A stretch of DNA of 64,000 nucleotides, taken from Candidatus Latescibacterota bacterium (GTDB lineage: Bacteria > Latescibacterota > UBA2968). Below are positions 515-24,852 of this stretch, in pieces (within the stretch, counting starts at the first letter, position 1; each line of letters starts with the position of its first letter). Made by a program: the position numbers and the translations under genes. Location: NCBI GenBank assembly GCA_965205975.1, contig OZ242195.1:1600001-1664000 (forward strand). Reading direction: 5' to 3'. The notes under the pieces are model-generated. The model saw only the letters and a program-made list of their open reading frames with translations, searched no databases and had not been told where the DNA came from.

Positions 515-538
515 ATTATTCCAATATTTATGGTTGTT

Positions 539-554
539 GGGCGATCATTCGCCC
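539..554. promoter_or_regulatory. 16-bp palindrome GGGCGA-N4-TCGCCC, candidate activator binding site
   Basis: gggcgatcattcgccc abuts the stop of the 554-3745 activator. The same motif occurs three times after the paralogous activator (20386, 20458, 20489). Confidence 0.5.
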
Positions 555-3500
555 TAAGTGCGTTTAAGACCCAGCCTTTTTATTTTGCTAAAAAGAGTAG
601 AAGACGGTAATCCCAGCAGGGCCGCTGCACCCTGAGCGCCTTTTACCCGATAGTTGGTCGCTTTGAGCACTTTGAGGATGTGACGGCGTTCGAGTTCATC
701 CAAAGTCACAACTGCTCGGCTCTGATCTAACTCGTGAGCGAGATCTGTAATCTGGGCATTAGACAGTCCAAGGTCACTTACGCCAATTTGAGAATTGCGA
801 CACACAATTACGGCGTGGTTTATCGCATGCTCCAATTCCCGCACATTACCCGGCCAATCGCAGGCTTGCAACACCTCAATAACCGCTATCGTCAAAGGAG
901 CTATGTCCTTGCCCAGATGCGCTGCCATGCGGGCCTTGAAATACTCCGCCAACTCCGGGATGTCCTCCCTGCGCTCGCGAAGCGGCGGCAAAGACATCGG
1001 AAACGCGTGGAGGCGGTAATAGAGATCCTCCCGAAAATCACCTGTGCCGACCATCTCCTCAAGATTGCGATTCGTCGCTGCCACAATCCGCGTCTTTGCC
1101 ATCAGCGTCTCACTGCCCCCAACCCGCTCATAAGTGCCCTCTTCCAGCAAGCGCAACAGCCTGGCCTGTGTTGCCAGAGTCATATCGCCGATCTCATCGA
1201 GGAAGAGCGTGCCATCTTTGGCCAGTTCCACCTTGCCCAGCCTGCGAGAAACTGCACTGGTAAACGCCCCTCTCTCGTGACCAAACAGTTCACTGTCAAT
1301 TAGTGTTTCAGGCAGTGCACCGCAGTTGACCTGTATAAAAGGCCCATCGCTATGGGCACTTTGTGCGTGTAACACCCGTGCAGCCAAGCCCTTACCCACA
1401 CCTGTCTCGCCCATAATCAGCACCGTAATATCAGTGGGTGCCACCTTCAGGAGTTTGTTTTGAAACTGATACAGAGCAGCGCTTTGTCCAATAAATCTTT
1501 TGTCTCCCTGACTATTGAGCGCCGTTTTCAGGCCTTCGATACGCGGATCTTCTTCTACCGAGATCTGCACCTGCGCGATCTCCGAGTAATTGAGGTCGCG
1601 ATCTATCGCCCGGACCTGAAAGGTGTAGTCTCCCGGCGGCAAGTCCCGGTAATGCGCCCGCGTCTTTCGGGTCGGTAGCTGCCAGTTGGGGTCGTGTCCT
1701 TTTAATCGGCAAACATACAGCATATCGCTGGAATGGGTGGAAAAACTCAGGCCCTTGTACTCTAAAATCACATTCTGATCTGCGGTAGATACGATAATTT
1801 CCTCCGGACTCTCATAGACCTGATTGGCAATCACCTGCAGCAGGCGAATCCGGGGCGGCGTTTGTAGCGGACGGTAGCGTATGACAGTACCCAGCGTCGT
1901 GCCAAACCAAAAAGCGCCGTCGCGATCTTCGAATATCTGAGAAACCGGTCCTATATGCGGTGACTTGATGGCCTGAAAAAGCTGACCATCGTAGTGGATC
2001 ACACCCACATCTGTGCCGAACCAGAGGTGGCCTTGCGAATCCTCGAATAGACAACGGATACGATCACTCGGCAACCCGTCTTCTGTCGTGAAGGTGTGGA
2101 AAGTGCGACCATCAAAGCGGCACATACCGCTCAAAGTGGCGATCCACAGGTTGCCTGCGCGGTCTAAGAGCAGGTCAGTGACCTTGTCGTCGATCAACCC
2201 ATCTTCAATGCCATAAAATTTGAGACCCTCTTCGGGATGCCAGCGCGCCAGACCCCTGTCGCCAGTGTGGCAGACCAAATGAAAATAGATCTCGCCCTTG
2301 CGCCCGACAACCACAGTGCCAATGCGGTCTAAAAAACCTTCCTTTTTGTCCTTTAAAAAAATGGTTTGAAACTGCTCGCCCCGCTGGTAAATGATCTTTA
2401 ATGGCCTATCCAAAAGCCTTTCTTTTTTTGTTTTCATTTCATTAAATTTCTTTTCCCTACAGCCGAAAAGGAATTGACCTTGCGCGTCCTGGGTGATTGC
2501 GCTGATGCTCATGTCGGCTGACCCCGCATCTATTTTTTCCTTTTTAAACTCCTGCCCATCGTAGCGGAACAGGCCGTTGAAGCCGCCAAACCACAGATAC
2601 CCTTCGCGGTCCTCGTACATAGAGAAACAGTTGTCGATATCAAAGCCCTGCTCGGAGCCTAAAAATGCAAAGTGTTCGCCATCAAAACGGGCGACGTCTT
2701 TGTTCAGGGAGGTGAGAATAGGGGAAACATACCCGATCCATATATCACCTCGCCGGTCTTGCACGATCTGCGAGACCTCGCTCGGCTCTTTGTCTTTGGG
2801 AGAAGCCTTCTCGAGGCCAAGAACGCTGATACTATGTTCATCGTAAAGCATCACACCACACCAGGTAGCGAACCAATACTGATGATTGCGATCCTGGAAT
2901 ACAGCTTTAACTGCATTCTGGGGCAGCTCATCAACAGGGGTAAACCTGCTGAACCCATCACCGTTCTGATACCATACGCCTTCCGAGGTGCACAACCACA
3001 TTCGCCCTTCCCGATCAAACTGAATTTTGCGTAGCCCCCACCCCAAACCTATTTGAACGGACTGGAAGGCACCATCGGCATAGCACCAGAGTTCATCTCG
3101 ATTTCCAAACCGACCGATCCACACTTTGCCGGTATGATCTTTATCTACGATATAGGCGGTTCCATCTGGCGGAAAGCCATCTTTCTCCTCATAGCGGTGG
3201 AAGGATGTACCATCGAAGCGGATGAGGTAGTTAAAGCCAAACCACAGGTGTCCTTGCGGATCCTGGGTAATACCCCAACACGGAGGCCACTTATTAGAAG
3301 GAGGCACCTCGTATTGCTGAAGGTAGAGCGGAATCATGTCGTGGAAAGCAGTGCCATCGCAATACCCCAGGGTACTCGTGCCACCAAACCATACACGTCC
3401 CTCACGGTCTTCGTAGATGGACTGCACAGTTCGGCCTGCAATGCCCGTGTCCTTCAAATGGTGAAATTCTGCTCCGTCATACCAGCAGACGCCATTTTCG

Positions 3501-3745
3501 GTGCCAAACCACAACCGATTCTGACTGTCTTGTAAAACAAAAAAAGTCCGGTCACTACAAAGACCATCTCTTTCGGTAAAATTCTTGAATTCGTCTCCAT
3601 CAAAGCGGCTCACGCCGTTGTCCCAGGTGGCGAACCAGATACAGCCCTCGCTATCCTCAGCGATGTGTTCAACGCGCATCCCTGCAAGGCCATCGGCGAT
3701 AGAATAAGTCCGACAGATGCCCGTGTGACCAAGTGATCCGATCAT
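554..3745 (-). CDS. Sigma54-dependent enhancer-binding activator with N-terminal two-component-regulator beta-propeller repeats and YYY domain (paralog 1)
   Basis: Repeated D-x-x-G-x-[LIM]-W-[FI]-G-T blades and F-T-x-x-D-G-L motifs; YYY domain ([19 protein letters not shown]); Walker [21 protein letters not shown]; Walker [27 protein letters not shown]; Fis-type HTH ([16 protein letters not shown]). Confidence 0.93.
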
Positions 3746-3797
3746 AATAAAAATCCTTATTATTACGCGCCTGCATTATCGCAACCCTGCGGACGCA

Positions 3798-3875
3798 CTA
3801 TTTCAGCAGCAAAAGACGGCGTACCTGCACCTCCTGTGCACTGGACAACCGATACAGATAGATCCCACTGGCAAC
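3798..3875 (-). pseudogene. Orphan remnant of the T9SS-type CTD 3' end (VASGIYLYRLSSAQEVQVRRLLLLK*)
   Basis: These 78 bp read identical to the last 26 codons of the genes ending at 9268 and 15190. They begin 27 nt after the TAG of the 3903-9221 gene and are in the same frame. Confidence 0.85.
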
Positions 3876-3902
3876 CAGATGAGACATGCACACGGGGCGC
3901 CT

Positions 3903-6900
3903 CTACCAGCCTATTGTGGCGCGACCAACAATCCCATGATCCGCACCGATAGACAACGGACTCGCACGACGATGGGCATCAACACCCAACTCAAAACGCA
4001 AGCCCTCATTAACAGGCGCACTGATGCCATAACCAACGCGATAATCCCGACCTTGAACCGAGGTCGCAAAGCCCAAACGCGGCGTGCCCACAAAGCGCCT
4101 GCCCAACGCCAAACCATACCCCAGATCCGCATCGAGCCGGTTGCCCAACGTGTAGCTGCCACCCGCTATACCCGACATCGTAGGCCGACCCCACAACGCC
4201 TCGGCTCCGCTCGTCGCCTGATCCCCCCAGGAAGGCGACACACGCATCGTCAAACCCAATGGCGTCGATGGACTCGGATTGTAACTGAAAGACACTGCCA
4301 TACCGCGCTCACCGTAGCCTTCCGCCTCGTGGACCAGCAACGTCCGCACGCGCATATCCACCTCCAGACCCGTCAAAGGATCGGAAACAACCAGACCCCC
4401 TGCAATATCCAGACCCGATCCTGTCTCGGCATCGCCCCCATCGTGACGAAGACCAACCATCACGCTCGGAGATAGAGACAATCGGCTCCGGAACGTCAGG
4501 ACATGAGATCCTTCAAGTGCTGTGCGCACACGGCTTACCACTGAACGCGTCGCTGCCAGATTGCCCGAAGAACCAGATACTGCACCACTCGACGTACCTA
4601 CCCACAACGCATCGGCCTTATACGACAACCTGAAACCATTCCCGCCACTGCCGATCAATTCGCCGCGCGTGCCCACCGCAGCCAGCGACATCGACAGACC
4701 CGCAGACAGTTGCAAGGCGTCTTCTTGACTCAACAGCATATCACCCACACCGTAGCCACCTACTGCCCACACCGTCATCCGATCCGTCAAACGATAGCCC
4801 AGCCACGGATAAAGACCCGTCACCGACGAAGCCACACGACCACCACCCACCCCACCCGTGTAACTGCCCAATCCCCAACTGCGAGACAAAGACAAGCCCA
4901 CCAGAAAAGGTCCCTTCGCGTAGTCAGTACCGAGCATCGCCGTGCGAACAGTGCCATCCAGACCCAGATCATCTTCGCGACCAAAAAAGGACGACCGCGC
5001 ACCACGGCTCCAGAAAGAGAACACGCCTCCCCGATCCATCTCACGGTTAAGCGTAAACGACGAACCCGTCAGCACATCGCCCGTCCTGAAAAGGGAACGC
5101 AACACTCCCGAAAGACCAAAGTCCCTATCGACGTCATCACCATATCTCAGACCGCCAAGACCATACACAAAGCGATCCGCCACGTCTGTAACCATATCCT
5201 CAGCCCCGCGCAACTGATGACCCGCCAAACGTCCCTCAAAACCCGACTCACGCCGTGCCTGCAGACGCTCCTCCACATATTCCACCACCTGCAACGCCGC
5301 CGTCCGACCAAACCGCGCAAGCAGGCCCTTAGGCATTGGATCGATGTTCACGATCGTCCCGGTCGCGTCGCCGTCGTCGATCCACACGTCGCCGCCCGAC
5401 GCGTTGGTCAGCGTCAGCTTGAACGTCTCCTCGCCCTCGTCAATGGCATCGTCGAGCACCGCCACCGCCACCGTCGTCGCCGTCTCGCCGACCGCGAACG
5501 TCAGCGTGCCCGTGGCCTGCGTGTAGTCCGACCCTGCTCTCGCGGAGCCGTTCGCAGTCGCGTAGTCCACCGTCACCGTCTCCGACGAAGCCCGACTCAG
5601 CGTCACCGCGAAGTCCACCGTCGCCCCGGCCGCCTCCGTCACCCGCGCGTCCGCCACCCTAAAGGCCGGCGGCCCCTTGATCTCCGCGGTCGCCGTGTTC
5701 GACAGCGCCTCGCCGTTGGGCATGCACACCGCCCCCTCGTCCGAACACGAGCCGCTCGGGCCGATCGACACCTCCATGTCGGTATGCGCGATCGGCTGTA
5801 TGACGACCACCCAGCGGTCGTTGCGCGCGCTGTCCTCACGCCGTACCCTGACCCTTCCTGGCACGTTGCTCTGCCGCATCTTCAGGGCGTGCTCCTGCAG
5901 CGTCCGGTAGCTCAAGCCTTCCGGGTTCTTGTTGAACACCAACCGGAGCTCCACCTCGTTGCTTCCGTCATGCGTGGCCGGCACGTCCTCGAATCGCACG
6001 GTGAACGGTTCACCCGGGACCACGCCTGACACGGCGGCTGCCAGCGGGCGATTGTCCGACGTGCAGATCGCGTCGCTTGCCGTGCAGTCAGTCGTCTCAG
6101 GCAGCACGATCGACACATCCGCTCCCACCTCCGGCTCCACCCGGATTCGCCAGCGCCGGTTGTTGTCCGCCTCGAAGCGGCTCACGCCGGTCACCGCGCC
6201 GCCGGTCACCTGCACACCGTCCTGCAGCGTCCGGTAGCTCAGCGAGATCTGCTCGCTGAACCGCAGCTCGAACGTGAACGCCTCGTCGCTGTGGGTATCC
6301 GGCAGGTCGTGGAACTCCCCGGACAGCGGCGACTCGGTATCGTTGTCGGAGATGGTCACCACCGCGGTGCCGTCGACTATGTGCGACCCGCCGCCAGCGG
6401 GATTGGAGAACTGCAGCGTAAAGGTCTCGCCGCCGTCGTCGAAGTTGTCGTTGAGCAGCGGCACCGATACGGTCGCCTCGCTCTCGCCCGCCGCGAAGGT
6501 GAGCGTCCCGGACGTAGATATGTAGTCCTGCCCCGCGATCGCCGTGCCGTCGGCGGTGGCATAGTCCACCGTCACGCTGCCAGCGGATGCCCGGCTCAGG
6601 GTGACCCGCACATCCGCGGTCGCGTTCCGGTCCTCGTTGGCCCGCGTGTCGCGCACCGAGACCCCCGGCGGCCCCTTGATTCTCTTGGTGATCTGGTTCG
6701 AGAGCTTCAGGCCTTCTTCCGTACACACCGCGCCCTCGTCCTCGCAGTTCTGGGTCGGGCCGACGCTCACGACGATGTCTTCGTGTTTGGAATTCTCATA
6801 GAACGGCATGAACGGGACGTCGAAGTGCCAACGCCGCCCGCTGTCGTCGCCGATCTTGTACACCCTGGTCGCCCGGATATCCCGGTATCCCAGGCTCATC

Positions 6901-9221
6901 AGCAACACGTTGGCGCGCAGGGTCGCGGCGTCGAGGCTGCTCTTGGGTGCGAGGCTGAAGGCGAGCCGGATGGAGAAGGCGGTGGAACCGTCGTGGGTGT
7001 CCGGAATGCGCTCGAATGCCACCGTCAGCTTTTCTTCCTTTACTACCTCCTCTTCCTCCTCTTCCTCCTCTTCCTCCGGCTCCTGCACGACGACCGGAGG
7101 CGTCTCCGGTACCACCGCCACCACCGACGCGGCGAGCGGTCGGTCGTCTTCCGTGCAGATCGCCCCGTCCGCCTCGCAGTCGTCCATCGCTGGCAACGTT
7201 ACCACCACGTTGCCCGAGCTGATCGGTTGGACGGTGATTCTCCAGCGCAGGTTATTGTCCCGTTCGATCCGCCCGGCCCTTATCACGTTCCCGTTCATGA
7301 CCGTGAACGCCGTACTGCGCAACGTCAGGTAGCTCACCGGCACCGACTCGCTGAAACGCAACTCGAAGGTGAATGGCTGCGTGCCGTGGCTCTCCGGCAG
7401 GTTGTGAAACGTCGCCGTCAACGCGTCGTCCTCCATCTGCTGCGTGGAGGTACCGGGCGACTGATTGGTCACCTCGTGGCCGCTCACCGCCGCGGCCGCG
7501 TTGCCCGCGATGTCCTGCAGCGGGTTGCTCGCCGGCACCGTATAGCTCACCGTCACGCTCTCCCCATGCACCACCGCCGTCGCTAGTGCCAGCGTCACCG
7601 TGCGCCCACTCACCGACACAGGTTCGCTGTCCGCCAGCACGCGCGACGCGCCCGCCACCGTCACCGCGAACGCAGAAGCGGGCGGCGGGTTCCCGTCCAG
7701 ATCCTCGCTGTACGTCAGCACCACGTACTGGCCGTTCGCCGTCGCCGAATGCAGCGTCGGCGCCGTGCTGTCCGACTCCGGGGTCAGGTTGCTCACCGTG
7801 TAGTCGCTCACCGCCGCGGCCGCGTTGCCCGCGATGTCCTGCAGCGGGTTGCTCGCCGGCACCGTATAGCTCACCGTCACGCTCTCCCCGTGTGCCACCG
7901 CCGTCGTCAGTGTCAGCGTCACCCGGCGCCCGCTCACCGCCACCGGATCGCTGTCCGTCAGCGCGCGCGACGCGCCCGCCACCGTCACCGCGAACGCAGA
8001 AGCGGGCGGCGGCGTATCCTCCTGCAGCCCCTCCGCGTAGGTGAGCACCAAGCTCGTTCCCGTCACTTCCGCCCGCCTCACCTCCGGCGCGGTCTCGTCG
8101 GGTGGGCCTCCGTACATGAATTCCCAATGGATCCGCTGCGACAGCTTGCGTCCGTCCGAGGTGCAGATCGCGCCTTCGGCCTCGCAGTCCGTGGTCACCG
8201 GCAGCACCACCCCCATACCCTTGTACGACAGCGGCAGGATCCAGAACACCCAGGTATTGTCCTCGCTGCCCAGCACCCGGTACGCGTTGGTGACTTCGGC
8301 GTTGGTGAGCTGGAAGGCGTGGTTTTTCATGTCCTCCGGCGTGATCGTCACCGGCCAACTGAAATCGATCCTAAGTTCGATCACCGTCGGCCCGAAGTGT
8401 ACGGGCTCGTACCCGTGGCGCGTCCCTGTCAGCGGAACGCTCAGCGGCCCTTCCACCCGCAACTCAGCGGCACTCGACAGCATGCGCCCGTCCCTCGCGC
8501 ACACCGCCCCCCAGGAGTCACACGACGTGGTGGGGGCCAGCGCAACCGTCACGTCCTGAACCGCCGTCGGTTCGATGGAGACCAGCCACTCGTCCGCCCG
8601 CCCGATCGTCATCGTCACCGACCGCACCCGCCCGTTTGTCACGCTCAGCGCCGGGCCGCGCTGCTTCGAGGGGGTAGTGACCGCGCTGCTGAAGTTCACA
8701 TAGACCTCGAACCGCTCCTGGCTATCGTGCGTGTCCGGCGCCCCCGAGAACCAGGCCGTCAGCGGCGGTACCGTCCCCTCCGGCACCGTCACCGTGGTCG
8801 CCGCCGCCAGCGGCCGCCGGTCGGCCGTACACACCGCGTCCGCGTCGTCGCAGTCGGTGGTGGCTGGCACCGTGATCTCCAGGTCCCCGCCGTGAGGCTC
8901 GATGGTGATTCTCCAGCGCGCGGTGAGGTCGTAGCCGTTGACATGTACCATGTCGCTGGCCCGCTGCGCCCGCGTCACCTGCCCATTGGTCACGCTCAGC
9001 AGGCGGTCGCGCACCGTCTTCCAGCTGGCGCTGACTGGCTCACTGAATGCCAGGTCCACGACAATGACCCGGCCCTCGTGCGCGTCCGGTGCTCCCTCAA
9101 TCGCCGCCGTGAGGGGCTCGGCATGCGCTGGCACCGCAGGCCAAGCCAGCATCGCAAGTGCAGCACTGGCAAGCGCGAGCACCGCCGCACGCAGCGCGCT
9201 AAGTCTCAATAAATATCCCAT
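3903..9221 (-). CDS. Giant surface protein: signal peptide, 7 Cx6C Ig-like repeats, 2 SwmB-like domains, 2 Calx-beta domains, C-terminal autotransporter-like beta-barrel
   Basis: RBS GAGGAG before ATG 9221; signal peptide ending AHA; Calx-beta motifs (VTVDYATADGTAIAGQDY...SGTLTFAAGE); SwmB-like motifs (LVLTYAEGL...NPLQDIAGNAAAA). The C-terminal ~480 aa (DPMPKGLLARFGRT...GRATIGW) has amphipathic strands and a terminal Trp. Confidence 0.85.
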   Translation of the reverse strand: MGYLLRLSALRAAVLALASAALAMLAWPAVPAHAEPLTAAIEGAPDAHEGRVIVVDLAFSEPVSASWKTVRDRLLSVTNGQVTRAQRASDMVHVNGYDLTARWRITIEPHGGDLEITVPATTDCDDADAVCTADRRPLAAATTVTVPEGTVPPLTAWFSGAPDTHDSQERFEVYVNFSSAVTTPSKQRGPALSVTNGRVRSVTMTIGRADEWLVSIEPTAVQDVTVALAPTTSCDSWGAVCARDGRMLSSAAELRVEGPLSVPLTGTRHGYEPVHFGPTVIELRIDFSWPVTITPEDMKNHAFQLTNAEVTNAYRVLGSEDNTWVFWILPLSYKGMGVVLPVTTDCEAEGAICTSDGRKLSQRIHWEFMYGGPPDETAPEVRRAEVTGTSLVLTYAEGLQEDTPPPASAFAVTVAGASRALTDSDPVAVSGRRVTLTLTTAVAHGESVTVSYTVPASNPLQDIAGNAAAAVSDYTVSNLTPESDSTAPTLHSATANGQYVVLTYSEDLDGNPPPASAFAVTVAGASRVLADSEPVSVSGRTVTLALATAVVHGESVTVSYTVPASNPLQDIAGNAAAAVSGHEVTNQSPGTSTQQMEDDALTATFHNLPESHGTQPFTFELRFSESVPVSYLTLRSTAFTVMNGNVIRAGRIERDNNLRWRITVQPISSGNVVVTLPAMDDCEADGAICTEDDRPLAASVVAVVPETPPVVVQEPEEEEEEEEEEVVKEEKLTVAFERIPDTHDGSTAFSIRLAFSLAPKSSLDAATLRANVLLMSLGYRDIRATRVYKIGDDSGRRWHFDVPFMPFYENSKHEDIVVSVGPTQNCEDEGAVCTEEGLKLSNQITKRIKGPPGVSVRDTRANEDRNATADVRVTLSRASAGSVTVDYATADGTAIAGQDYISTSGTLTFAAGESEATVSVPLLNDNFDDGGETFTLQFSNPAGGGSHIVDGTAVVTISDNDTESPLSGEFHDLPDTHSDEAFTFELRFSEQISLSYRTLQDGVQVTGGAVTGVSRFEADNNRRWRIRVEPEVGADVSIVLPETTDCTASDAICTSDNRPLAAAVSGVVPGEPFTVRFEDVPATHDGSNEVELRLVFNKNPEGLSYRTLQEHALKMRQSNVPGRVRVRREDSARNDRWVVVIQPIAHTDMEVSIGPSGSCSDEGAVCMPNGEALSNTATAEIKGPPAFRVADARVTEAAGATVDFAVTLSRASSETVTVDYATANGSARAGSDYTQATGTLTFAVGETATTVAVAVLDDAIDEGEETFKLTLTNASGGDVWIDDGDATGTIVNIDPMPKGLLARFGRTAALQVVEYVEERLQARRESGFEGRLAGHQLRGAEDMVTDVADRFVYGLGGLRYGDDVDRDFGLSGVLRSLFRTGDVLTGSSFTLNREMDRGGVFSFWSRGARSSFFGREDDLGLDGTVRTAMLGTDYAKGPFLVGLSLSRSWGLGSYTGGVGGGRVASSVTGLYPWLGYRLTDRMTVWAVGGYGVGDMLLSQEDALQLSAGLSMSLAAVGTRGELIGSGGNGFRLSYKADALWVGTSSGAVSGSSGNLAATRSVVSRVRTALEGSHVLTFRSRLSLSPSVMVGLRHDGGDAETGSGLDIAGGLVVSDPLTGLEVDMRVRTLLVHEAEGYGERGMAVSFSYNPSPSTPLGLTMRVSPSWGDQATSGAEALWGRPTMSGIAGGSYTLGNRLDADLGYGLALGRRFVGTPRLGFATSVQGRDYRVGYGISAPVNEGLRFELGVDAHRRASPLSIGADHGIVGRATIGW
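7481..8012. repeat. Recent tandem duplication of an SwmB-like module (period 324 bp)
   Basis: 7481-7688 and 7805-8012 share long identical runs, e.g. cgctcaccgccgcggccgcgttgcccgcgatgtcctgcagcgggttgctcgccggcaccgtatagctcaccgtcacgctctcccc. Confidence 0.85.
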
Positions 9222-9258
9222 AATCGATTGCTCCTCTTCAAGATTGATTTAAAACCGA

Positions 9259-15135: not shown

Positions 15136-15180
15136 TGTCGTTTATCTCCTTTCCCAATGATTAGACAGGCTCCAGCGTAG

Positions 15181-15820: not shown

Positions 15821-18800
15821 TCCTGAGGTGGATCGTTGGCGGGTGATTCTGCGACCGTGATGGTGGCCTGACCGCTCCAGTCGCCAGCGGTGCCGCTATA
15901 TGAGGCGCGTATCTTCACCTTGTATTCTTCTCCCGCCTCCAGACCCGTAATCGCGTAGGAAGGTTCGGTGGGATAGGCGTTGCCGGTGTTGTCGGTCCAG
16001 GTCTTGAAACCCTCGCCCTGCTTTGCCCATGCTATGCGATAGTTGGCCGGTGCTTCACTGGGTGCCTCCCAACTGGCCTGGATGGTTCCCGGCTGAGAAC
16101 TGACCAGAGTGATCCTTCCTATGTCGCGAGTGCCACGCTGCTCGGGTGGCTCCAGCACAACGGTATTCTCCTGAGGTGGATCCGCAGGAATGTTCTGGAC
16201 TGTGACGATAACCGTGTCAGAGTCTGTGGCGCCGTGCTCGTCGGTGGCAGTAAGCGTAAAGGTGATGGTGGCATCAGAGTCCACCTGGGGCGCAGTAAAT
16301 GTAGCAGAGAGAGCTGCTGGGTCATCCAGCGAGAGGTCCAGATCATCCTGGTCGTGGGTCCACTGGTAGGTCAGATTATCGTTGTCAGGGTCAGAGGCTG
16401 TTCCGGACAGCGTCACCTCAGAGCCTTCCTGAACGGTCTGGTCAGATCCGGCGTCGGCAGTCGGCGCTTCGTTGGATGGAGACCCTGTGACCGTGATGGT
16501 GGCCTCGCCGCTCCAGCCTCCGGAGGTGCCGCTATATGAGGCGCGTATCTTCACCTTGTATTCTTCTCCCGCCTCCAGACCCGTGATGGTGTAGGAAGGT
16601 TCGGTGGGATAGGCGTTGCCGGTGTTGTCGGTCCAGGTCTTGTAACCCTCGCCCTGCTTTGCCCATGTTATGCGGTAGTTGGCCGGAGCCTCCGTTGGTG
16701 CTTCCCAGGAGGCCTGGATGGTTCCGGGCGTGTCTGCCGTCAGGGTAATGGTTCCGATGTCGCGGGCACCGCGCGGTTCTTCCGGCTCCAGCACAACGGT
16801 ATTGCTCGGGGGTGGGTCGCTGTCATCCTCCGGTTCCGCCGTAGGCTCCGTGCCCTCGTGGGACAGGTCCGCCACGATGCCGGTCGCTCGCGACACGATT
16901 TTCCCACCGGTCGATCCGAGGCTGTTCTCCGTGATCGCGATCCGGATGTGCCTTGCCTCTTCGTCCGCCACCTCCTGTCCAAATACCAGCGTTGCAGTTC
17001 CGGAACCGGACGCAAGGGCGAGTACCGCCGGCCCGCCGGAGATCGTTACCCAAAGAGTCAGGCTGCCCTTCACGGACACCGGCTCGCTGAAGGTGACGCG
17101 CGCCTCGATGCTCTCTCCGTGTGTCCAGGCGCGGTCGCCCGACTCGTCCGCGACCAGTTCCACGGCGGTCACGTAGGGCGCGACCGGCGGTGTTCCCAGC
17201 ACCGTTCCCAAAAGTGCTGCAGACCACTCCCCATCGCCTTCCGAGCTCGTCGCCCTTACCCGCACCTCATATTTAGCTCCCTCCACCAGCCCCGATATTT
17301 TCGCGCGGGTCTCCGCCACATCCTGCGGTCCGTCTCTGAACGGGTCGCCGGCCGGCCACCCCACCAGGCGGTAGCCCAGGTCGTAGTGCAGAATGTCCGG
17401 TTTGCCCGAGTTTGCCGGGGCGAGCCACGACACCGTCAAACTCTCGCGGTCCCGCGACTCCAGCGTCGGCGCGGCCAGGCTGTCGGGTGGTTCGTCCTGA
17501 TTCGAGACCGTGATCGTCAGTCCGTGCTCGGCGCTATCCTCACCGTCCCGCACAATGATCGAAAGCGCGTGCTCGCTGGCCTTCTCGAAGTCCAGCACCG
17601 CCTTCGTCCTCAGCTGCGCAGTCGTCGAATCAATCGCGAAATCGTCCTTGCCGGGCCCGTCCAGAGAATAGGTCAACGCAGCGTTCGGATCCGTGCGGGA
17701 CGCGGTGAAGGGTTCGCCGATCTTCGTGTCCGTTGGCGTATTCTCGGCGACTGACAGCGTCACCGGCAGACCTGCGTCGAATACGAGCGGACGTTCAACG
17801 CGTGCGCCCAGGATCTTCATCTTCATTACATAGTCTCTGGTGCTCCATTCAATCCAGCCGGTTTGCTTCCAATGACTGTCGTCTGCAATCCGCCAGGCGT
17901 CCGTTCCGGATTCGGCGCCACTGTTGGTCGCCTCGATCTTGAACCATCGCTCAGTGCCTGAAGTGTGCAATGCGAACTGGATCACATAGTCGGTATTGGG
18001 CTGAAGAATCCTGCTCTCCTCCGACGTACCATCGACAGGTACGAACGTCACCGGGCCGCCGTCGCCGAGGAACTTGCCGTACGTCGTTGGATTCTCGAAA
18101 TCCAGGATCTTCTCCCCGAGTGGGTCGCTTGCGTCACCGAACAAATGGAGCGATGCCTCCAGATTATCCCCGTCGATCTCTTCGTAGAAGCCAAAGTTCA
18201 ACACGACCGATGTCAGTTCGTAGCCATCCCTTGAATCGCCGGTGGTAAAGACCTGTGCCCCCCGCTGATTGAGGCTAGTGCCGTCTGCCTTGCCGATTTT
18301 GGGTCGCCAGTCCAGCGGTCGATCCAGGTTGCTGACCAAAACATCGCCCTGCGGGACGCCGACGGGCGGTGTCGTCGAGTCATCGTCCGCGATGGTGCCG
18401 GTTGCCGTGGTGTCCGACAGATACGCCCGCCCGCCCGACGCATTGCTCAGCGTCAGCGTGAACGTCTCGGCGCCTTCCTCGACTTCATCTGACAGCAACG
18501 GCACCGAGACCGTCTTGCCGGTCTCGCCCGTCGCGAACGTCAGCGTTCCCGACGTGGCCGTGTAATCCGCTCCGGCGGTCGCCGTCCCATCGGAGGTTGC
18601 GTAGTCCACCGTCACGGTTTCAGCCACCGTGCGGTTCAGCGTCACCGCGAAGTCCACGGTCGTGTTCGCACCCTCCACCTCGCTCGCATCGACCACCGAC
18701 AGCCAGGGCGCCGGACCCGGAACCGTCGCCGCCACCGGCACCGAGAGCGGCCGCCCATTGTCGGTGCAGATCGCGTTGGCCGCCGAGCAGTCCGTCGTCG

Positions 18801-20235
18801 CGAGGAGAGTGATGGCAATGTCCGCAACGTCGCTGTCCGGAGCGATGCGAATCCGCCAGACAAGATTCCGGTGGTTCGACCCGTACCGGTACGTCCGCTC
18901 CAACCGTCCGTTGACCACGGCAAGCGCGCCCGCCCGCCTTCCATCCCCCTTCAGGTTCAAGTAGCTGAAGAGCGAATCCGGTTCTTCGCTGAAGCTGAGC
19001 AGAAATTCGAATGCCGCCCCGTCGTGACTGGTCGGCACCCCGACAAACTCTGCCGTAAGCTCGGCCCCGTCGATCCGCCCTGTCGCTATCGCGTCCAGGA
19101 CTCGCGCGTTGGCGCTCGGGTTGCTCAGCGTCAGCCTGAATTCCTCAAAGTCCTCGTGAACATCGTCGTCGGAGATTGTCACGGTCACGGTTTTCGAGGT
19201 CTCGCCCGCGGCGAACGTCAGCGTCCCCGAAACGGCCGTGTAGTCGGATCCGGCGATGGCCGTCCAGTCGGAAGTCTCGTAGTCCACGGTGGCCGCATTC
19301 GGCAGCGCCCCGTCCATCGTCACGACGAAGGATGCGGTGTAGCCCTCGACAGCCATCGCGTCGGCTACGTACAGACCGCCGGGTCCCTGGGTGTCGGGCG
19401 CCACCTGGAAAACGGAGGAGAGGGCATAGACCCGGGTGGACAATGTGCCGTCGGCACCAGCGCCCCGGTCAACGCTGTACATGGGCATTCCGCCGGAGTT
19501 CAACTTTCCGCCGCCGACCCTTTCGCCCTCGGTCGTAATATTGCGAAACGGCCACTTGGGTTTGGAACGGCCGTCCGACGTGCTGCCGTTGAGTACGCCA
19601 AGTGCCTCGTCCGATCCCGATCCGCCCGCCTCGGTGGTCCAGGATTCGCTATCCCAGTACCCGTCGTACAGGTCCTCGTAGTCGTCCGCGACCCTGACGC
19701 CGCTGCCAAGCCAGTAGATGGGCTCGCCGGGGCCATCCGTGTTGGGGTTCGTACCGGTGTTGTCCCGCGCGGCTACCGCGGCCGTACTGGCCAGGACCCG
19801 GAAGAGTGAACTGTGCGATTGAATGGCCGCGTGGCCCGCCGCCGCGCGGGCCTGCACGAACGCGTTGTAGTCGTCGATGTCGTTGGAGTTGAGCTGGATC
19901 TCAGTGGAGGTCACGAACAACAGGCGGAACGTGTCTCCGGCCCCTACTTCGGGCGGAATCAGCGACCAGTCCGACGGAACCCTGGTCTGTGCCCAGGCTG
20001 GCACCCCCGACAGAAGCGCAGCAAGCGCGAGGAGCACGGCTACAGTCCAGCCCGCAGTGGTGGATCGCGCCCGACCGTGGCGGATCAACAATCCATGCCG
20101 GACCACATCGTCCACCTCGTTGTGAGTGTTCGGACAGGGCTCGAGACAGCTAACTCGCATGGAAGTGCCTTGCTTGTCAATCGGTGCTCCGCAATTCAAG
20201 GTAGCCGTTTGCTGGACTGAAGTTGTCATGCTCAT
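15190..20235 (-). CDS. Giant secreted protein: unassigned N-terminal domain, 2 Calx-beta, 1 Cx6C repeat, cadherin, 4 FN3, PKD/REJ-like, FlgD-Ig/T9SS-type CTD
   Basis: 1681-aa ORF; the start may be ATG 20229 (GAGGT, 6-nt spacing). Signal-like segment ending AWA after a long leader; Calx-beta motifs; cadherin (SVAENT...LDFEKA); PKD-like (PTADAGSDQTVQEGSEVTLSGTASDPDNDNLTYQWT); same CTD as 9268-15135. Confidence 0.88.
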   Translation of the reverse strand: MSMTTSVQQTATLNCGAPIDKQGTSMRVSCLEPCPNTHNEVDDVVRHGLLIRHGRARSTTAGWTVAVLLALAALLSGVPAWAQTRVPSDWSLIPPEVGAGDTFRLLFVTSTEIQLNSNDIDDYNAFVQARAAAGHAAIQSHSSLFRVLASTAAVAARDNTGTNPNTDGPGEPIYWLGSGVRVADDYEDLYDGYWDSESWTTEAGGSGSDEALGVLNGSTSDGRSKPKWPFRNITTEGERVGGGKLNSGGMPMYSVDRGAGADGTLSTRVYALSSVFQVAPDTQGPGGLYVADAMAVEGYTASFVVTMDGALPNAATVDYETSDWTAIAGSDYTAVSGTLTFAAGETSKTVTVTISDDDVHEDFEEFRLTLSNPSANARVLDAIATGRIDGAELTAEFVGVPTSHDGAAFEFLLSFSEEPDSLFSYLNLKGDGRRAGALAVVNGRLERTYRYGSNHRNLVWRIRIAPDSDVADIAITLLATTDCSAANAICTDNGRPLSVPVAATVPGPAPWLSVVDASEVEGANTTVDFAVTLNRTVAETVTVDYATSDGTATAGADYTATSGTLTFATGETGKTVSVPLLSDEVEEGAETFTLTLSNASGGRAYLSDTTATGTIADDDSTTPPVGVPQGDVLVSNLDRPLDWRPKIGKADGTSLNQRGAQVFTTGDSRDGYELTSVVLNFGFYEEIDGDNLEASLHLFGDASDPLGEKILDFENPTTYGKFLGDGGPVTFVPVDGTSEESRILQPNTDYVIQFALHTSGTERWFKIEATNSGAESGTDAWRIADDSHWKQTGWIEWSTRDYVMKMKILGARVERPLVFDAGLPVTLSVAENTPTDTKIGEPFTASRTDPNAALTYSLDGPGKDDFAIDSTTAQLRTKAVLDFEKASEHALSIIVRDGEDSAEHGLTITVSNQDEPPDSLAAPTLESRDRESLTVSWLAPANSGKPDILHYDLGYRLVGWPAGDPFRDGPQDVAETRAKISGLVEGAKYEVRVRATSSEGDGEWSAALLGTVLGTPPVAPYVTAVELVADESGDRAWTHGESIEARVTFSEPVSVKGSLTLWVTISGGPAVLALASGSGTATLVFGQEVADEEARHIRIAITENSLGSTGGKIVSRATGIVADLSHEGTEPTAEPEDDSDPPPSNTVVLEPEEPRGARDIGTITLTADTPGTIQASWEAPTEAPANYRITWAKQGEGYKTWTDNTGNAYPTEPSYTITGLEAGEEYKVKIRASYSGTSGGWSGEATITVTGSPSNEAPTADAGSDQTVQEGSEVTLSGTASDPDNDNLTYQWTHDQDDLDLSLDDPAALSATFTAPQVDSDATITFTLTATDEHGATDSDTVIVTVQNIPADPPQENTVVLEPPEQRGTRDIGRITLVSSQPGTIQASWEAPSEAPANYRIAWAKQGEGFKTWTDNTGNAYPTEPSYAITGLEAGEEYKVKIRASYSGTAGDWSGQATITVAESPANDPPQENTVVLEPEEPRGSRDIGTITLTAATPATIQASWEAPTEAPANYRITWAKQDEGYKTWTDNTGNAYPTEPSYAITGLEAGEEYKVKIRARYNGTAGDWSGQATITVVESQSSKPIVPSLTFGLEANYPNPFNPETHIAYRLSTSGAVELAIYNILGQRIRTLVQEVQSAGRYRVVWNGRNDNGAPVASGIYLYRLSSAQEVQVRRLLLLK

Positions 20236-20271
20236 ACCTCAACTTTTGAAGCTCTGGATTAAGATTATATA

Positions 20272-20287
20272 TGCAAAAAGCGTGCCA
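20272..20287 (-). promoter_or_regulatory. Sigma54 (-24/-12) promoter for the surface-protein cassette
   Basis: Minus strand TGGCAC-GCTTT-TTGCA is an exact match to the TGGCAC-N5-TTGCW consensus, 36 nt upstream of the ORF start at 20235. Confidence 0.88.
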
Positions 20288-20315
20288 CTGTGAATAGAAC
20301 CCAAAATTATACTCA

Positions 20316-20328
20316 CAACACATTGTTT
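20316..20328 (-). promoter_or_regulatory. Candidate IHF site
   Basis: Minus strand AAACAATGTGTTG is one mismatch from WATCAANNNNTTR. It sits in an AT-rich tract between the sigma54 promoter and the candidate enhancer sites. Confidence 0.45.
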
Positions 20329-20385
20329 TAAAAGAATATAGAACTGTAAATAAAAACAAAAAACCAGACTGAATTTTATACCAGG

Positions 20386-20504
20386 GGGCAAGTTATCGCC
20401 CCTGATATAATCAGCCTGGCTCATTTTCTACTTATTATTACAATATTTATGACTGTTGGGCGGCGATTCGCCCTTAAAAATGGCTATCGGGCTACTATTC
20501 GCCC
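20386..20504. promoter_or_regulatory. Three 16-bp palindromic candidate upstream activator sequences (GGGC-N6-TCGCCC)
   Basis: gggcaagttatcgccc (20386-20401), gggcggcgattcgccc (20458-20473) and gggctactattcgccc (20489-20504) lie ~100-220 bp upstream of the -24 box. The last two are 31 bp apart. Confidence 0.6.
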
Positions 20505-23500
20505 CTAAGAGCGTTTAATGCCCAGCTTTTTTATTTTGCTAAAAAGAGTAGAAGACGGTAATCCCAGCAGGGCCGCTGCACCCTGAGCGCCTTTTACCCG
20601 ATAGTTGGTCGCTTTGAGCACTTTGAGGATGTGACGGCGTTCGAGTTCATCCAAAGTCACAACTGCTCGGCTCTGATCTAACTCGTGAGCGAGATCTGCA
20701 ATCTGAGCCTTAGACAGTTCAAGGTCACTTACGCCAATTTGAGAATTGCGACACACAATTACGGCGTGGTTTATCGCATGCTCCAATTCCCGCACATTAC
20801 CCGGCCAATCGCAGGCTTGCAACACCTCAATAACCGCTATCGTCAAAGGAGCTATGTCCTTGCCCAGATGCGCTGCCATGCGGGCCTTGAAATACTCCGC
20901 CAACTCCGGGATGTCCTCCCTGCGCTCGCGAAGCGGCGGCAAAGACATCGGAAACGCGTGGAGGCGGTAATAGAGATCCTCCCGAAAATCACCTGTGCCG
21001 ACCATCTCCTCAAGATTGCGATTCGTCGCTGCCACAATCCGCGTCTTTGCCATCAGCGTCTCACTGCCCCCAACCCGCTCATAAGTGCCCTCTTCCAGCA
21101 AGCGCAACAGCCTGGCCTGTGTTGCCAGAGTCATATCGCCGATCTCATCGAGGAAGAGCGTGCCATCTTTGGCCAGTTCCACCTTGCCCAGCCTGCGAGA
21201 AACCGCACTGGTAAACGCCCCTCTCTCGTGACCAAACAGTTCACTGTCAATTAGTGTTTCAGGCAGTGCACCGCAGTTGACCTGTATAAAAGGCCCATCG
21301 CTATGGGCACTCTGTACGTGTAACACCCGTGCAGCCAGTCCCTTCCCCACACCTGTCTCGCCCATAATCAGCACCGTAATAGCAGTGGGTGCCACCTTCA
21401 GGAGTTTGTTTTGAAACTGATACAGAGCAGCGCTTTGTCCAATAAATCTATTGTCTCCCTGGCTATTGAGCGCCGTTTTCAGGCCTTCGATACGCGGATC
21501 TTCCTCTACCGAGATCTGCACCTGCACAATCTCCGAGTAATTGAGGTCGCGATCTATCGCCCGGACCTGAAAGGTGTAGTCTCCCGGCGGCAAGTCCCGG
21601 TAATGCGCCCGCGTCTTTCGGGTCGGTAGCTGCCAGTTGGGGTCGTGTCCTTTTAATCGGCAAACATACAGCATATCGCGGGAATGGGTGGAAAAACTCA
21701 GGCCCTTGTACTCTAAAATCACATTCTGATCTGCGGTAGATACGATAATTTCCTCCGGACTCTCATAGACCTGATTGGCAATCACCTGCAGCAGGCGAAT
21801 CCGGGGCGGCGTTTGTAGCGGACGGTAGCGTATGACATTACCCTGCATAGTGCCAAACCAAAAGGCGCCGTCGCGATCTTCGAATATCTGAGAAACCGGT
21901 CCTATATGCGGTGACTTGATGGCCTGAAAATGCTGTCCATTGTAGTGAACCACGCCCCTATCTGTGCCGAACCAGAGGTGGCCTTGCGAATCCTCGAATA
22001 GACAACGGATGTGGTTGCTCGGCAACCCGTCTTCTGTCGTGAAGGTGTGGAAAGTGCGACCATCAAAGCGGCACATACCGCTCAAAGTGGCGATCCACAG
22101 GTTGCCTGCGCGGTCTAAGAGCAGGTCAGTGACCTGGTTGTCTGTCAGCCCATCTTCAATGCCATAAAATTTGAGACCCTCTTCGGGATGCCAGCGCGCC
22201 AGACCCTTGTCGCCAACTGAGAAATTGTGGCAGACCAAATGAAAATAGATCTCGCCCTTGCGCCCGACAACCACAGTGCCAATGCGGTCTAAAAAACCTT
22301 CCTTTTTGTCCTTTAAAAAAATGGTTTGAAACTGCTCGCCCCGCTGGTAAATGATCTTTAATGGGCTGGGCGAAAGCACTTCTTTTTTTATAAATTCGGT
22401 TTTATAGGTGCTCTGTTCCCAATAGCCAAAAATGAATTGGCCTTCCTGGTCCTGCGCGATTGCACTAACACTTTTTTTGTCTAATTCTGCGATTGTTTCT
22501 ATTTTTTTAACCTTCTGCCCATCGTAGCGGAACACGCCATTGAGGCCGCCAAACCACAGATACCCTTCGCGGTCCTCGTACATAGAGAAACAGTTGTGGA
22601 TATCGAAGCCCTGCTCGGAGCCTAAAAATGCAAAGTGTTCGCCATCAAAACGGGCGATGTCGTTGCTCTGGGTGACCAGAATAGGGGAAACATACCCGAT
22701 CCATATATCACCTCGCCGGTCTTGCGCGATCTGCGAGACCTCGCTCGGCTCTTTGGAAAACGCCTTACCCAGGTCAAAAACGCTGATACTATGTGCATCG
22801 TAGAGCCCTAAACCGCCCCAGGTGGCAAACCAATACTGATGATTGCGATCCTGAAACACGGCTTTGACTGCGGGATGGGGCAAGCCATCGGCAAGGGGAA
22901 ACCTGTTGAATCCTTCTCCGTCCTGGTATAATACGCCCTCAGAAGTGCTGAACCACATCCGACCTGTACCGTCACACTGAATTTTACGTAATCTACCACC
23001 CAAATCTATTTGAACAGACTGGAAGGTCCCATCGGCATAGCACCGGAGTTCATCTCGATTTCCAAACCGACCGATCCACACTTTGCCGGTATGATCTTTA
23101 TCTACGATATAGGCGGTTCCATCTGGCGGAAAGCCATCTTTCTCCTCATAGCGGTGGAAGGATTCACCATCAAAGCGGATGAGGAAACTACAGCCAAACC
23201 ACAGATGACCTTGCGGATCCTGGGTAATACCCCAACACTTGGCCCACCTATCAGAAGGCGGCTGCTTGTATTGCTGAAGGTAGAGCGGAATCATGTCGTG
23301 GAAAGCAGTGCCATCGCAATACCCCAGAGTTCTCGGGCCACCGCACCATATACGCCCCTCACGGTCTTCGTAGATGGACTGCACGTCTCGGCCTGCAATG
23401 CCCTCGTCATTCAAATGGTGAAAATCTGTTCCATCGTACCAGCATACGCCATTTTCTGTACCGAACCACAACCGATTCTGACTGTCTTGTAAAACAAAAT

Positions 23501-23702
23501 AAGTACGATCGTGAATAAGACCGTCCTGTTTGGTAAAATTCTGGAACTCGTCCCCATCAAAGCGACAGGCACCGTTGTCCCATGTGGCGAACCAGATACA
23601 GCCCTCGCTATCTTCGGCGATGTGTTCAATGCGCGTCCCGGTCAGGCCATCGGCTATCGAATAAGTCCGATAGGTACCCGTGCGGTCAAGTGGTTTGATC
23701 AT
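20505..23702 (-). CDS. Sigma54-dependent enhancer-binding activator with beta-propeller and YYY domains (paralog 2)
   Basis: Same domain motifs as 554-3745. The C-terminal region from RYRPLQTPP onward differs from paralog 1 at about 11 residues by manual comparison. Confidence 0.93.
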
Positions 23703-23797
23703 AGGAAGAACCTTGTGATAGTGAGAATGGTTGAGGGATTTGTCGGTGTTGGCATTGGGGCGCTGACATAATCCGGCTTTATGTCATTGGCTCGGTC

Positions 23798-24391
23798 TTA
23801 TCCTTTATTAAATGTTATTACTTTTTTTGGTGTAGGGATAAAGATGTCAAAGTCTTCGGGTGGTCCGTAAGTAATACCGACCTGAGAAAGAGCAATGGTA
23901 AATTCCTGCGTCACATTTACTTTGGTAACGAACTCGACCCGAGCTAAAAACCCGGACGATGGTAGGCGCACCTTTGGTTGTTCATTTCTCACAGAAAGAA
24001 TACTTTCATTGGCAGATGCTATAAAAGCATTGAAGAAGACATTGTTCTCGATTTTGGAATACGTTAGAATATTTGAATCAAAATCAAACTTAATGTACGC
24101 GCCTAAGAAAGGTCTGTTCACGATGGCGAATACTTCAATGGCAATTTTCTTACCCTGTCCAGACACTTGCCCTGAAGTAACGCGATCATCTCTCTTGTTA
24201 CCTATCCCACCATCGATAATAAAATCAAGTGCTAAGGTGTCAGAAGGAGCAGTCTGTGCGACCTGTTCATCTCTTTCATTTGGCGTATCTGGCTCAACCG
24301 GCTGAGGCCCTGATATCTTGTTACCACCGCAAGACAACACCGATAAACAAAAGAGCAGAACGCAAGATAACCACAATCTATTGCTCAACAT
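23798..24391 (-). CDS. Lipoprotein with cohesin-like domain
   Basis: RBS GGGAGA; lipobox VLSC; beta-sandwich pattern (IAIEVFA...IKFDFDSNILTY...SGFLARVEFVT) resembling the protein at 1-514; AT-rich. Confidence 0.7.
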   Translation of the reverse strand: MLSNRLWLSCVLLFCLSVLSCGGNKISGPQPVEPDTPNERDEQVAQTAPSDTLALDFIIDGGIGNKRDDRVTSGQVSGQGKKIAIEVFAIVNRPFLGAYIKFDFDSNILTYSKIENNVFFNAFIASANESILSVRNEQPKVRLPSSGFLARVEFVTKVNVTQEFTIALSQVGITYGPPEDFDIFIPTPKKVITFNKG

Positions 24392-24439
24392 GTAAATCTC
24401 CCTTTTCTTGTCACAATATAAACTTGCCTTCCGTTATAC

Positions 24440-24455
24440 TGCAAAAAGTGTGCCA
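24440..24455 (-). promoter_or_regulatory. Sigma54 (-24/-12) promoter upstream of lipoprotein + activator 2
   Basis: Minus strand TGGCAC-ACTTT-TTGCA, exact consensus and one base different from the 20272-20287 promoter; 48 nt upstream of ATG 24391. Confidence 0.85.
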
Positions 24456-24457
24456 AC

Positions 24458-24692: not shown

Positions 24693-24852
24693 GAGAAGGA
24701 ATAACAAAACAAGCCAAATACGAAAAATCGAAATAAAAGACACGCCTTCTACCCACCCCCACTTTCAGACTCGTCCAATTAAGTCTTCAAATGTTCGATA
24801 GCGATTGATCGATCAAATATATCATTGGAGGTGCCTGACAAAACTATGGAGG

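Follow-up and report, generated by a model that had tools for sequence, protein, structure and literature searches.

A 64,000-nucleotide (nt) stretch of the genome of Candidatus Latescibacterota bacterium (assembly GCA_965205975.1), hereafter called the window (G000:C1:1,600,001-1,664,000 of the single-contig genome G000; 5.56 Mb, 51% GC), carries an array of three genes for giant surface proteins, named B, A and C in transcription order, together with two activators of sigma54-dependent transcription. The array is probably a tandem pair of a unit found across the genus and made up of a sensor-activator, a promoter and a cargo, in which the bodies of B and A are shared with Longimicrobiales, were likely received by G000 and end in a secretion tag of host type. 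Every part of the array listed in a first-pass annotation made from the sequence alone was recovered by open reading frame (ORF) calling and sequence inspection, all on the minus strand, including the sigma54 sites, the palindromes, the C-terminal domain (CTD) common to A and B and an orphan copy of its tail.

Two tandem units of activator, promoter and cargo

The repeating unit combines an activator with propellers, a Y_Y_Y domain and a sigma54-type output, its own sigma54 promoter, and a surface-protein cargo. As annotated before, the two activators form a direct repeat spaced by 19,951 bp, with 91% nt identity over 3,231 bp and an identical run of 484 bp. Their AAA+ domain matches PF00158 (E 3e-63) and contains the Walker A motif GETGVGK and the loop GAFTSA, and the activator scores below every listed NCBIfam equivalog cut-off. 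The sensor matches structures of Bacteroides hybrid two-component system (HTCS) sensors, 3v9f (E 3e-40) and 4a2l (E 5e-40); no kinase or receiver domain is among the Pfam matches of the activator. A crude hydropathy scan identified neither signal peptide nor membrane helix (top 19-residue hydropathy 1.59; 0/65 activators above 1.8), and since no hydrophobic stretch exceeds 1.59 the activator is likely cytoplasmic. Divergence between activators 1 and 2 is uneven, with synonymous differences (pS) of 0.34 and 0.14 in two propellers and of 0.02-0.04 in the Y_Y_Y, AAA+ and helix-turn-helix (HTH) domains, and several sensor windows are nearer to activators of other species than to each other. This pattern is suggestive of two sensors feeding one output. 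An activator tree was not used for the order of events, because the activator genes are mosaics.

The first-pass annotation had the two activators bracketing the cassette. Behind activator 1 come the initial 45 bp of a promoter, a gene of 833 amino acids (aa), a second copy of the last 50 bp of the activator together with the full promoter, and gene D, a 3,826-aa barrel gene outside the window; the full promoter and the start of D lie 2.8 kb beyond activator 1. The array therefore reads as two tandem units instead of a bracket, with activator 1 heading the unit that would drive D. The two genes C and D share their terminal barrel and an 18-bp sequence downstream; of the CTD tail, C keeps 84 bp and D only the last codons. 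In all, the array extends ~25 kb leftward past the window edge, where the 833-aa cohesin-like/leucine-rich repeat (LRR) gene and gene D are accompanied by a promoter copy 90% identical to that of B, by a third activator and by an IS256 that is intact.

A cassette that is bracketed by the activators, with the direct repeat serving excision or amplification, is therefore a highly improbable account of the locus. The long repeat with its identical run would suit it, as would the recurrence of tandem activators with a sigma54 site between them (L047, L069, L076, L077, L083), but the promoter remains behind activator 1 and the full promoter of D do not, and bracket cargo was found in 0/20 congeners. 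Likewise, no fetched relative has B, A or C between two activators, although loci of 20 kb could miss an arrangement of such size. The sole circle-like joint (23703 to 3750) was rejected, as it is the 5' end of activator 1 mapped on activator 2 and no rearrangement, and a second joint (3790 to 3898) is the end of gene D. Neither excision nor amplification was seen in contigs, which cannot phase such hybrids.

The unit recurs across the genus

Activator matches were obtained in 22/41 genomes, including 15 of the 20 congeners, with up to 10 per genome; the sensor part alone was matched in 39/168 genomes of the phylum, spread over three families, and the activator was not found in five genomes of two other phyla. 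Sixty regions around activator and promoter matches were fetched from 13 genomes, leaving out the fragmented G003, G005, G007, G013 and G035 and the partial matches in G024, G025 and G029. With a sigma54 motif counted at up to 450 bp downstream or up to 350 bp divergent of the activator, 51/64 distinct full-length activators have an adjoining motif (35 downstream, 20 divergent, 4 both), the expectation being 0.0096 each. The cargo varies widely and comprises cohesin-like, dockerin-like, LRR, FN3 and cadherin proteins, and in a crude test 47/53 first cargo ORFs display an N-terminal hydrophobic stretch compared with 31% of 3,150 genome ORFs. Activator and promoter thus stay together among relatives while the cargo varies, as had been proposed, and in G000 the tag and the promoter are of host type and the gene bodies are not.

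Further promoters of the same type occur in G000. Copies with 90% nt identity to the B-A-C promoter precede D and E, and one with 74% precedes a gene for a 5,846-aa protein. Gene E (G000:C1:4488945-4500089) is a 95-97% copy of D with its promoter, 2.9 Mb away, beside what is presumably a glutamyl-tRNA synthetase gene; as it has no adjoining activator, it is likely controlled in trans. The 5,846-aa protein (G000:C1:1412679-1430219) is barrel-ended, has host values of GC content at third codon positions (GC3, 0.52) and lies behind this fourth promoter. A relay layout, in which the promoter of an activator points into a second activator, directly or via one or two short or cargo genes, was observed in four congeners (L069, L076, L077, L083, L047).

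Promoter sequence follows the DNA-binding end of the activator

The promoters of the unit are built alike: 16-bp palindromes are combined with a long inverted repeat that carries a T run, with an IHF-like stretch and with the -24/-12 site; the strict repeat pattern was found in 25/61 promoters. Upstream of B, three 16-bp palindromes are predicted enhancer sites and lie at -217, -186 and -114 relative to the site at 20287, and the inverted repeat around the third is likely the terminator of the activator as well as an enhancer site. Between them and the promoter is a putative IHF-like site at 20316..20328 (minus strand), with one mismatch to the consensus. The gene rpoN is present in G000. Palindrome sequences vary between lineages, and a single genus-wide enhancer was rejected: GGGCGA-N4-TCGCCC is confined to G000 and a few relatives, and others have different palindromes.

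This variation allowed promoters to be compared with both ends of their activators. In divergent arrangements, where the HTH lies 3 kb from the promoter, the nearest promoter was among the two nearest HTHs in 19/20 cases, compared with 6/20 for the adjacent propeller. The downstream arrangement yielded 28/35 for the HTH and 12/35 for the first propeller. Of the two results, that for divergent genes is cleaner, since their promoter adjoins the end of the gene that encodes the propeller and no coding DNA falls within the compared window. Promoter sequence accordingly appears to track the DNA-binding end of the activator and not its sensor.

No promoter or terminator was found within 3600-4000, so that co-transcription of activator 1 with B-A-C is plausible. 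Scans for sigma70 promoters and terminators over 20200-25100 stayed at chance level. Activity of the sigma54 site ahead of the lipoprotein gene is doubtful, because the enhancer and hairpin layout of the family is absent there.

The bodies of B and A are shared with Longimicrobiales

In agreement with the first-pass annotation, the three giant genes are richer in GC than their flanks, with GC3 of 0.74-0.80 compared with a mean of 0.55 (sd 0.07) over 2,575 ORFs, only 0.6% of which reach 0.74. The lower-GC ends that it had noted hold for all three genes and the lower-GC starts for A and B, less so for C. Large parts of B and A match genes of Longimicrobiales (Gemmatimonadota) at 92% and 82% nt identity, respectively. 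Among 301 Longimicrobiales genomes, with two candidates scored per genome, long matches were confined to G041, G263 and G340. Their B-like gene precedes A-like genes in one array in G041 and G340 and lies apart from them in G263. A control flank of 19.8 kb gave matches of at most 273 bp. In 20 congeners the gene bodies of B, A and C are absent, the two genomes that matched doing so in the CTD or barrel only; colinear, unshuffled copies of the three genes were thus found in none of these 20.

Where G000 departs from a base common to all three donors, 97 changes run from G/C to A/T and 29 in reverse. Such a bias to A/T is as expected if G000, at 51% GC, is the recipient, and it likely received the bodies of B and A. 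For these two genes the comparisons bear out the proposed capture of foreign modules, as judged from sequence relationships.

The genomic site itself is a hot spot. Nothing that resembles B, A or C follows the right flank in the 20 regions compared, which come from 19 congeners; the distance from this flank to the left core gene is under 20 kb in 9/19, compared with ~55 kb in G000, and a full activator is present there in 3/19.

An assembly or binning chimera, in which Longimicrobiales DNA of the same metagenome was joined in at repeats, has very little probability. The region is repeat-rich, contamination of the genome is given as 4.1%, and none of the listed contigs runs from one end of the region to the other; against this, donor identity is 92% and not ~100%, with directional loss of G/C, the fusions are in frame, a 469-bp contig runs from the donor-like body of A into the host leader in two samples, and A-type proteins are encoded in other assemblies, one with a full CTD (P0251). 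Short-read contigs (two samples, one study) cross the junction of activator 1 and the orphan tail in 4/4 runs and that of the tail and C in 3/4. The contig of the shared tail has ~3x the depth of the junction contigs, and with the junctions crossed the tail repeats are therefore no assembly artefact, a concern raised in the first-pass annotation. Depth contrasts (114 v 93, 22.5 v 20, 164 v 141) of C with A/B and of the two sides of the orphan tail were not used, because contig depth is no share of cells.

Donor tails are replaced by host-type tags

A and B end in an identical 90-aa CTD (658 bp, 96% nt) that scores 42.4 bits on TIGR04183 (cut-off 23), the family of type A CTDs of the type IX secretion system (T9SS). 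Its GC3 of 0.60-0.63 contrasts with 0.76-0.79 in the gene bodies, and its closest relatives (71-74%) cap congener genes that bear the same immunoglobulin (Ig)-like repeat as the giants. CTD matches number 13 in G000 and 15 in the congener G015, with one weak match per donor genome. The donor genes end in a different tail of ~115 aa that is Arg-rich, hydrophobic and Cys-bearing, with 7-8 matches per donor genome and 0 in G000 and G015. The donor tail is thus gone from B and A, with a host-type T9SS-like CTD in its place. C is split in the same way, a barrel of GC3 0.52-0.66 following a body of 0.84-0.92. An independent case is found in the congener G005, which combines an activator, its own palindrome and a sigma54 site with a 2,045-aa high-GC gene (body GC3 0.67-0.94) that carries a different CTD.

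For export, a hydrophobic N-terminal leader is clear in B and in A was seen by eye. The window encodes an SprA-like translocon, and 15/18 PorV-family matches in G000 exceed the cut-off, G015 having more. The Longimicrobiales tail (L131:9756-10100 in G041; homologues in G263 and G340) runs from an Arg-rich part through a hydrophobic stretch and a W-S-C lipobox-like motif into ~90 further aa. Each genome has 7-8 large proteins that end in this tail, which matches no NCBIfam model and may serve as a signal for anchoring or sorting that has not been described.

Modules of the giant proteins are exchanged between paralogues

The commonest module of the giants is a 110-aa disulfide Ig-like repeat without a name in Pfam, predicted to fold as a beta-sandwich (pLDDT 94.8). 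Foldseek returned weak Ig-like structural matches (best E 0.005; none at E 0.001 or better), and no PDB sequence match falls under E 0.14. By pattern rules, 53 protein matches with this repeat end in a barrel (30), a donor-type tail (6), a CTD (1) or otherwise, including broken ends (16). The repeat was also seen in Dehalococcoidia proteins (L104-L109; 45-58% identity) without long DNA matches. The GH16 domain of A retains its catalytic motif (ExDxxE) as EIDILE (PF00722 E 2.6e-16; laminarinase structures E 2e-15), and the head of B resembles DUF1554 proteins at scores under 0.9, which is a lead only. The barrel of C has no direct Pfam or NCBIfam family match; it aligns to the C-terminal part of a PF03797-annotated protein (E 1.5e-23), and its homologues are annotated PF03797 or PF13505. 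These modules point to a cargo that would act at the cell surface in adhesion and in the binding or cleavage of glycans.

Windows of the G000 genes B, A, C, D and E show 80-100% identity among themselves, their order differing from gene to gene, and D and E differ by a block of ~220 aa. Related assemblies encode proteins in which head and middle derive from different paralogues: P0246 and P0131 combine an E-type head with an A-type middle (81-97%), P0246 also having a barrel; P0121 has the body of C with a D/E-type barrel end; and P0251 has A modules in another order with a full CTD. Two assemblies agree on the E/A junction. These hybrids and the reordered windows support the reshuffling that had been proposed, in the form of module exchange between paralogues.

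The 84-bp orphan tail, which stands in frame behind C, is a relic of a CTD gene. A dedicated platform for capture and shuffling, similar to an integron without integrase, in which duplicated gene ends act as recurrent sites of integration and excision and cassettes turn over within populations, seems unlikely. A and C each sit between copies of the 84-bp tail, the 833-aa gene sits between two copies of the activator 3' end, the end of D retains the last codons of the tail, and the site has the marks of a hot spot given above. Tandem duplication followed by deletion yields the same scars, however, the repeats are of unequal length (84, 658 and ~50 bp) without a common core, the fetched loci show no gene for a site-specific recombinase that goes with the unit, and no deletion or circle joint was seen in contigs, which cannot phase one. 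The proposed "dedicated" character, as opposed to selection acting on ordinary recombination, is not demonstrated. The statement that no recombinase is present takes no account of an IS256 remnant inside the region and the intact IS256 at the left side of the island. A wider conception, which we put forward tentatively and consider less likely than not, is a modular display system of this Latescibacterota lineage with three independently swappable parts, namely a cytoplasmic propeller sensor exchanged among paralogues, a matched pair of HTH and enhancer-sigma54 promoter, and a cargo slot that would capture adhesin bodies of other phyla and re-tag them for host export, with duplicated gene ends as recurrent entry points; it would be an integrase-free counterpart of integrons for giant surface proteins, drawing on a module pool common to a symbiont community.

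Several observations weigh against a tandem pair of genus-wide units with bodies received from Longimicrobiales. Five of the 20 congeners are without an activator match, 13/64 activators are without an adjoining sigma54 site, and in the downstream set of 35 cases whole-matrix correlations are weak (rho 0.10-0.25) among kin that are not independent. The likely cytoplasmic placement of the activator comes from the hydropathy scan, and activator control, the ligand and read-through are all matters that we infer. As G000 is 92% identical to all three donors, which share 95.5-99% with each other, the true donor may be an unsampled third lineage. No close donor for the body of C was found in genome contigs, metagenome contigs or the 301 Longimicrobiales genomes (two candidates each), its protein matches staying at or below 52% apart from a strain variant. 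Likewise, no donor was found for the bodies of D and of the G005 gene, nor for the stretch of FN3 repeats that links the captured body to the CTD; for D, 1/401 Gemmatimonadota genomes matched, at 76% over 1.5 kb. Because this FN3 stretch is without an identified source, B and A are at least three-part chimeras with an unexplained middle. P0246 and P0131 are known as proteins only and may be assembly chimeras. SprA is the likely exit route of the CTD proteins, the T9SS parts scored being SprA and the PorV family.

Other features of the region

Table 1 Positions of the features discussed, counted from the first letter of the window
Feature	Position	Strand	Remarks
Cohesin-like gene, 5' end	2..514	-	runs off the window; 833-aa cohesin-like, cadherin, FN3, LRR protein
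Palindrome	539..554	.	left over from truncated promoter copy
Activator 1	554..3745	-	output half 97-100% nt to activator 2; sensor half mosaic; heads next tandem unit
Orphan 84-bp CTD tail	3792..3875	-	in frame behind stop codon of C; 99% identical to the other two tails
Giant protein C	3903..9221	-	1,772 aa; unnamed disulfide Ig repeats, SwmB, Calx-beta (GC3 0.84-0.92), then autotransporter-like barrel
Barrel of C	3906-5339	-	GC3 0.52-0.66; common to D and E at 88% nt; protein ends in Trp
Giant protein A	9268..15135	-	1,955 aa; GH16, SwmB repeats, unnamed Ig repeats, FN3, CTD
CTD of A	9271..9540	-	protein identical to that of B; GC3 0.60
Captured part of A	11679..14965	-	gene A nt 171-3457, 3.3 kb; 82% nt, 88-92% in GH16 windows
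Giant protein B	15190..20235	-	1,681 aa; DUF1554-like head, Calx-beta, cadherin, FN3, PKD, unnamed Ig repeats, CTD
T9SS type A-like CTD of B	15193..15462	-	GC3 0.63
Captured part of B	16822..20069	-	gene B nt 167-3414, 3.25 kb; 92% nt to Longimicrobiales genes
Sigma54 promoter of B-A-C	20272..20287	-	-24/-12 site
Long inverted repeat, then T run	20361..20422	-	palindrome 3 (20386-20401) at centre; basis: fold
Palindrome 2, predicted enhancer site	20458..20473	.	
Palindrome 1, predicted enhancer site	20489..20504	.	GGGCGA-N4-TCGCCC type; directly at activator 2 stop
Activator 2	20505..23702	-	Reg_prop propellers, Y_Y_Y, sigma54 AAA+, Fis-type HTH (Pfam)
Lipoprotein	23798..24391	-	197 aa; cohesin-like domain; GC3 0.39; lipobox seen in sequence
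Sigma54 site for lipoprotein	24440..24455	-	-24/-12 site without the enhancer and hairpin layout of the family
Mutator/IS256 transposase remnant	~24501..24696	-	just upstream of first sigma54 site; 99.5% nt to two other genome places
SprA-like T9SS translocon	40322..46597	-	TIGR04189 over cut-off; 16 kb from array

The label "cohesin-like" stands at family level, where 8/23 homologues match PF00963. It does not extend to the left-hand protein of the window, which is not among these, and a whole-ORF Pfam scan gave no match for either window protein; the best PDB match is a cohesin (E 0.011, weak). The IS256 remnant lies in an ORF (24411-24743) that matches PF00872 (E 7e-19) and belongs to a different sequence family from the intact copy. 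The intergenic gaps of 46-54 bp display no common hairpin by eye.

Elsewhere, a TonB-dependent-receptor-like ORF at 61178-64000 of the window has a start similar to that of the cargo which an activator promoter precedes in G019 (L044). An ORF of 558 aa to the left of the window (G000:C1:1573401-1575077) combines an ATPase-like part with a C-terminal hydrophobic end and has a sigma54 site upstream, which was also seen, at the matching site, in several congeners; we take it to carry tyrosine-recombinase-like motifs. Two short ORFs at G000:C1:1577967-1579020, adjoining a truncated dockerin-LRR gene, presumably resemble CRISPR type III RAMP fragments.

Proposed mechanism and significance

In the mechanism that we propose, the propeller-Y_Y_Y sensor would bind a small cytoplasmic molecule, which by analogy with HTCS sensors is likely a glycan fragment that the cell has imported. 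The AAA+ domain would then assemble on the palindromes, which begin at the stop codon of the activator gene itself, and, with bending by IHF, open sigma54 polymerase. One long B-A-C transcript likely reads on into activator 1, which would give a relay or positive feedback, and the promoter copies ahead of D, E and the gene for the 5,846-aa protein are likely driven by these activators too. A and B would leave the cell by Sec and T9SS, and C, D and E by their own barrel. The likely way in for new cargo is recombination of the ordinary kind, homologous or short-homology, through Ig-repeat modules common to donors and residents; a product would persist only if it is in frame and acquires both promoter and tag from the host.

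A surface gene from a foreign phylum is useless unless the recipient expresses and exports it, and the locus displays a fix for this at base-pair level: the foreign body is kept, the donor anchor dropped, a host tag placed at the end and a host promoter in front. It is likely an example of a bacterium putting the adhesion genes of a neighbour to its own use, and it opens the transfer of adhesins among symbionts to tests on single genes. All parts are of known kinds, and adhesin transfer has already been published. For the activator family and for tag replacement, no published account was found in a search that left most subscription papers and all supplements outside. The locus also defines three families of which no description was found: a soluble HTCS-type sensor fused to a sigma54 activator, whose natural HTH-enhancer variants form a set for the study of specificity; the 110-aa disulfide Ig-like repeat, found in three phyla; and the C-terminal lipobox-like tail of Longimicrobiales.

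Comparison with known systems

An integron combines a fixed promoter with a tandem array of variable acquired genes, and the G000 array is similar in outline; it differs in that the cargo is fused in frame to host parts and in that no IntI, attI or attC was identified, the gaps between the genes having been inspected for hairpins by eye. No integrase family was among the Pfam matches of the ORFs scanned in 1-30,000, the tyrosine-recombinase-like ORF 25 kb to the left not having been scanned for IntI.

The tandem beta-propeller and Y_Y_Y sensor of the activators is that of Bacteroidota HTCS (3v9f, 4a2l), the output of which is a kinase-receiver-AraC chain. HTCS and the regulator BguR have a signal peptide and a membrane helix and control sugar-use loci, whereas the G000 activators have neither, and their output is a sigma54 AAA+ domain with a surface protein as cargo. 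BguR is a membrane-bound one-component regulator with a motif upstream of its target genes; the G000 activators are likewise one-component regulators, the output being GerE in BguR and sigma54 AAA+ in G000 (bioRxiv 10.64898/2026.01.10.698779). With NtrC, NifA and NorR they share an AAA+ domain with Walker A and GAFTSA loop, a Fis-type HTH, palindromes 110-220 bp upstream, an IHF-like site and a -24/-12 promoter, and differ from them in a 730-aa propeller sensor, in up to 10 copies per genome with patchwork sensors, and in an enhancer at the gene's own stop codon.

Lateral transfer of cadherin and FN3 attachment genes among sponge symbionts, covering Latescibacterota, Gemmatimonadota and Chloroflexota, has been described, and few lineages were reported to encode secretion systems (Robbins et al. 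2021, PMC8163846). The G000 locus resembles this cross-lineage transfer of attachment proteins; partial-gene capture, tag replacement and regulation are not resolved in the portion of that survey considered here, and T9SS is indicated as an export route in a lineage that it covers. From the taxa involved and the same survey (PMC8163846), G000 would be an inhabitant of sponges.

Like autotransporters and giant adhesins (SwmB-repeat, Calx-beta, LapA-like), the barrel-ended proteins combine a signal peptide, a long Ig/Calx-beta/SwmB stalk and a predicted C-terminal barrel ending in Trp, with different GC3 in passenger and barrel; they differ in a barrel without direct Pfam or NCBIfam match and in the unnamed 110-aa disulfide beta-sandwich as main repeat. 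With T9SS type A CTD proteins, A and B share a CTD over the TIGR04183 cut-off, and SprA and the PorV family are present. In Porphyromonas, the adhesin domains of gingipains and HagA are reportedly shuffled, which is similar to the modules swapped between paralogues in G000. The difference from both is that G000 stands outside Bacteroidota, that the passenger originates in a different phylum and has lost its first tail to another, and that the module pool is also carried on barrels.

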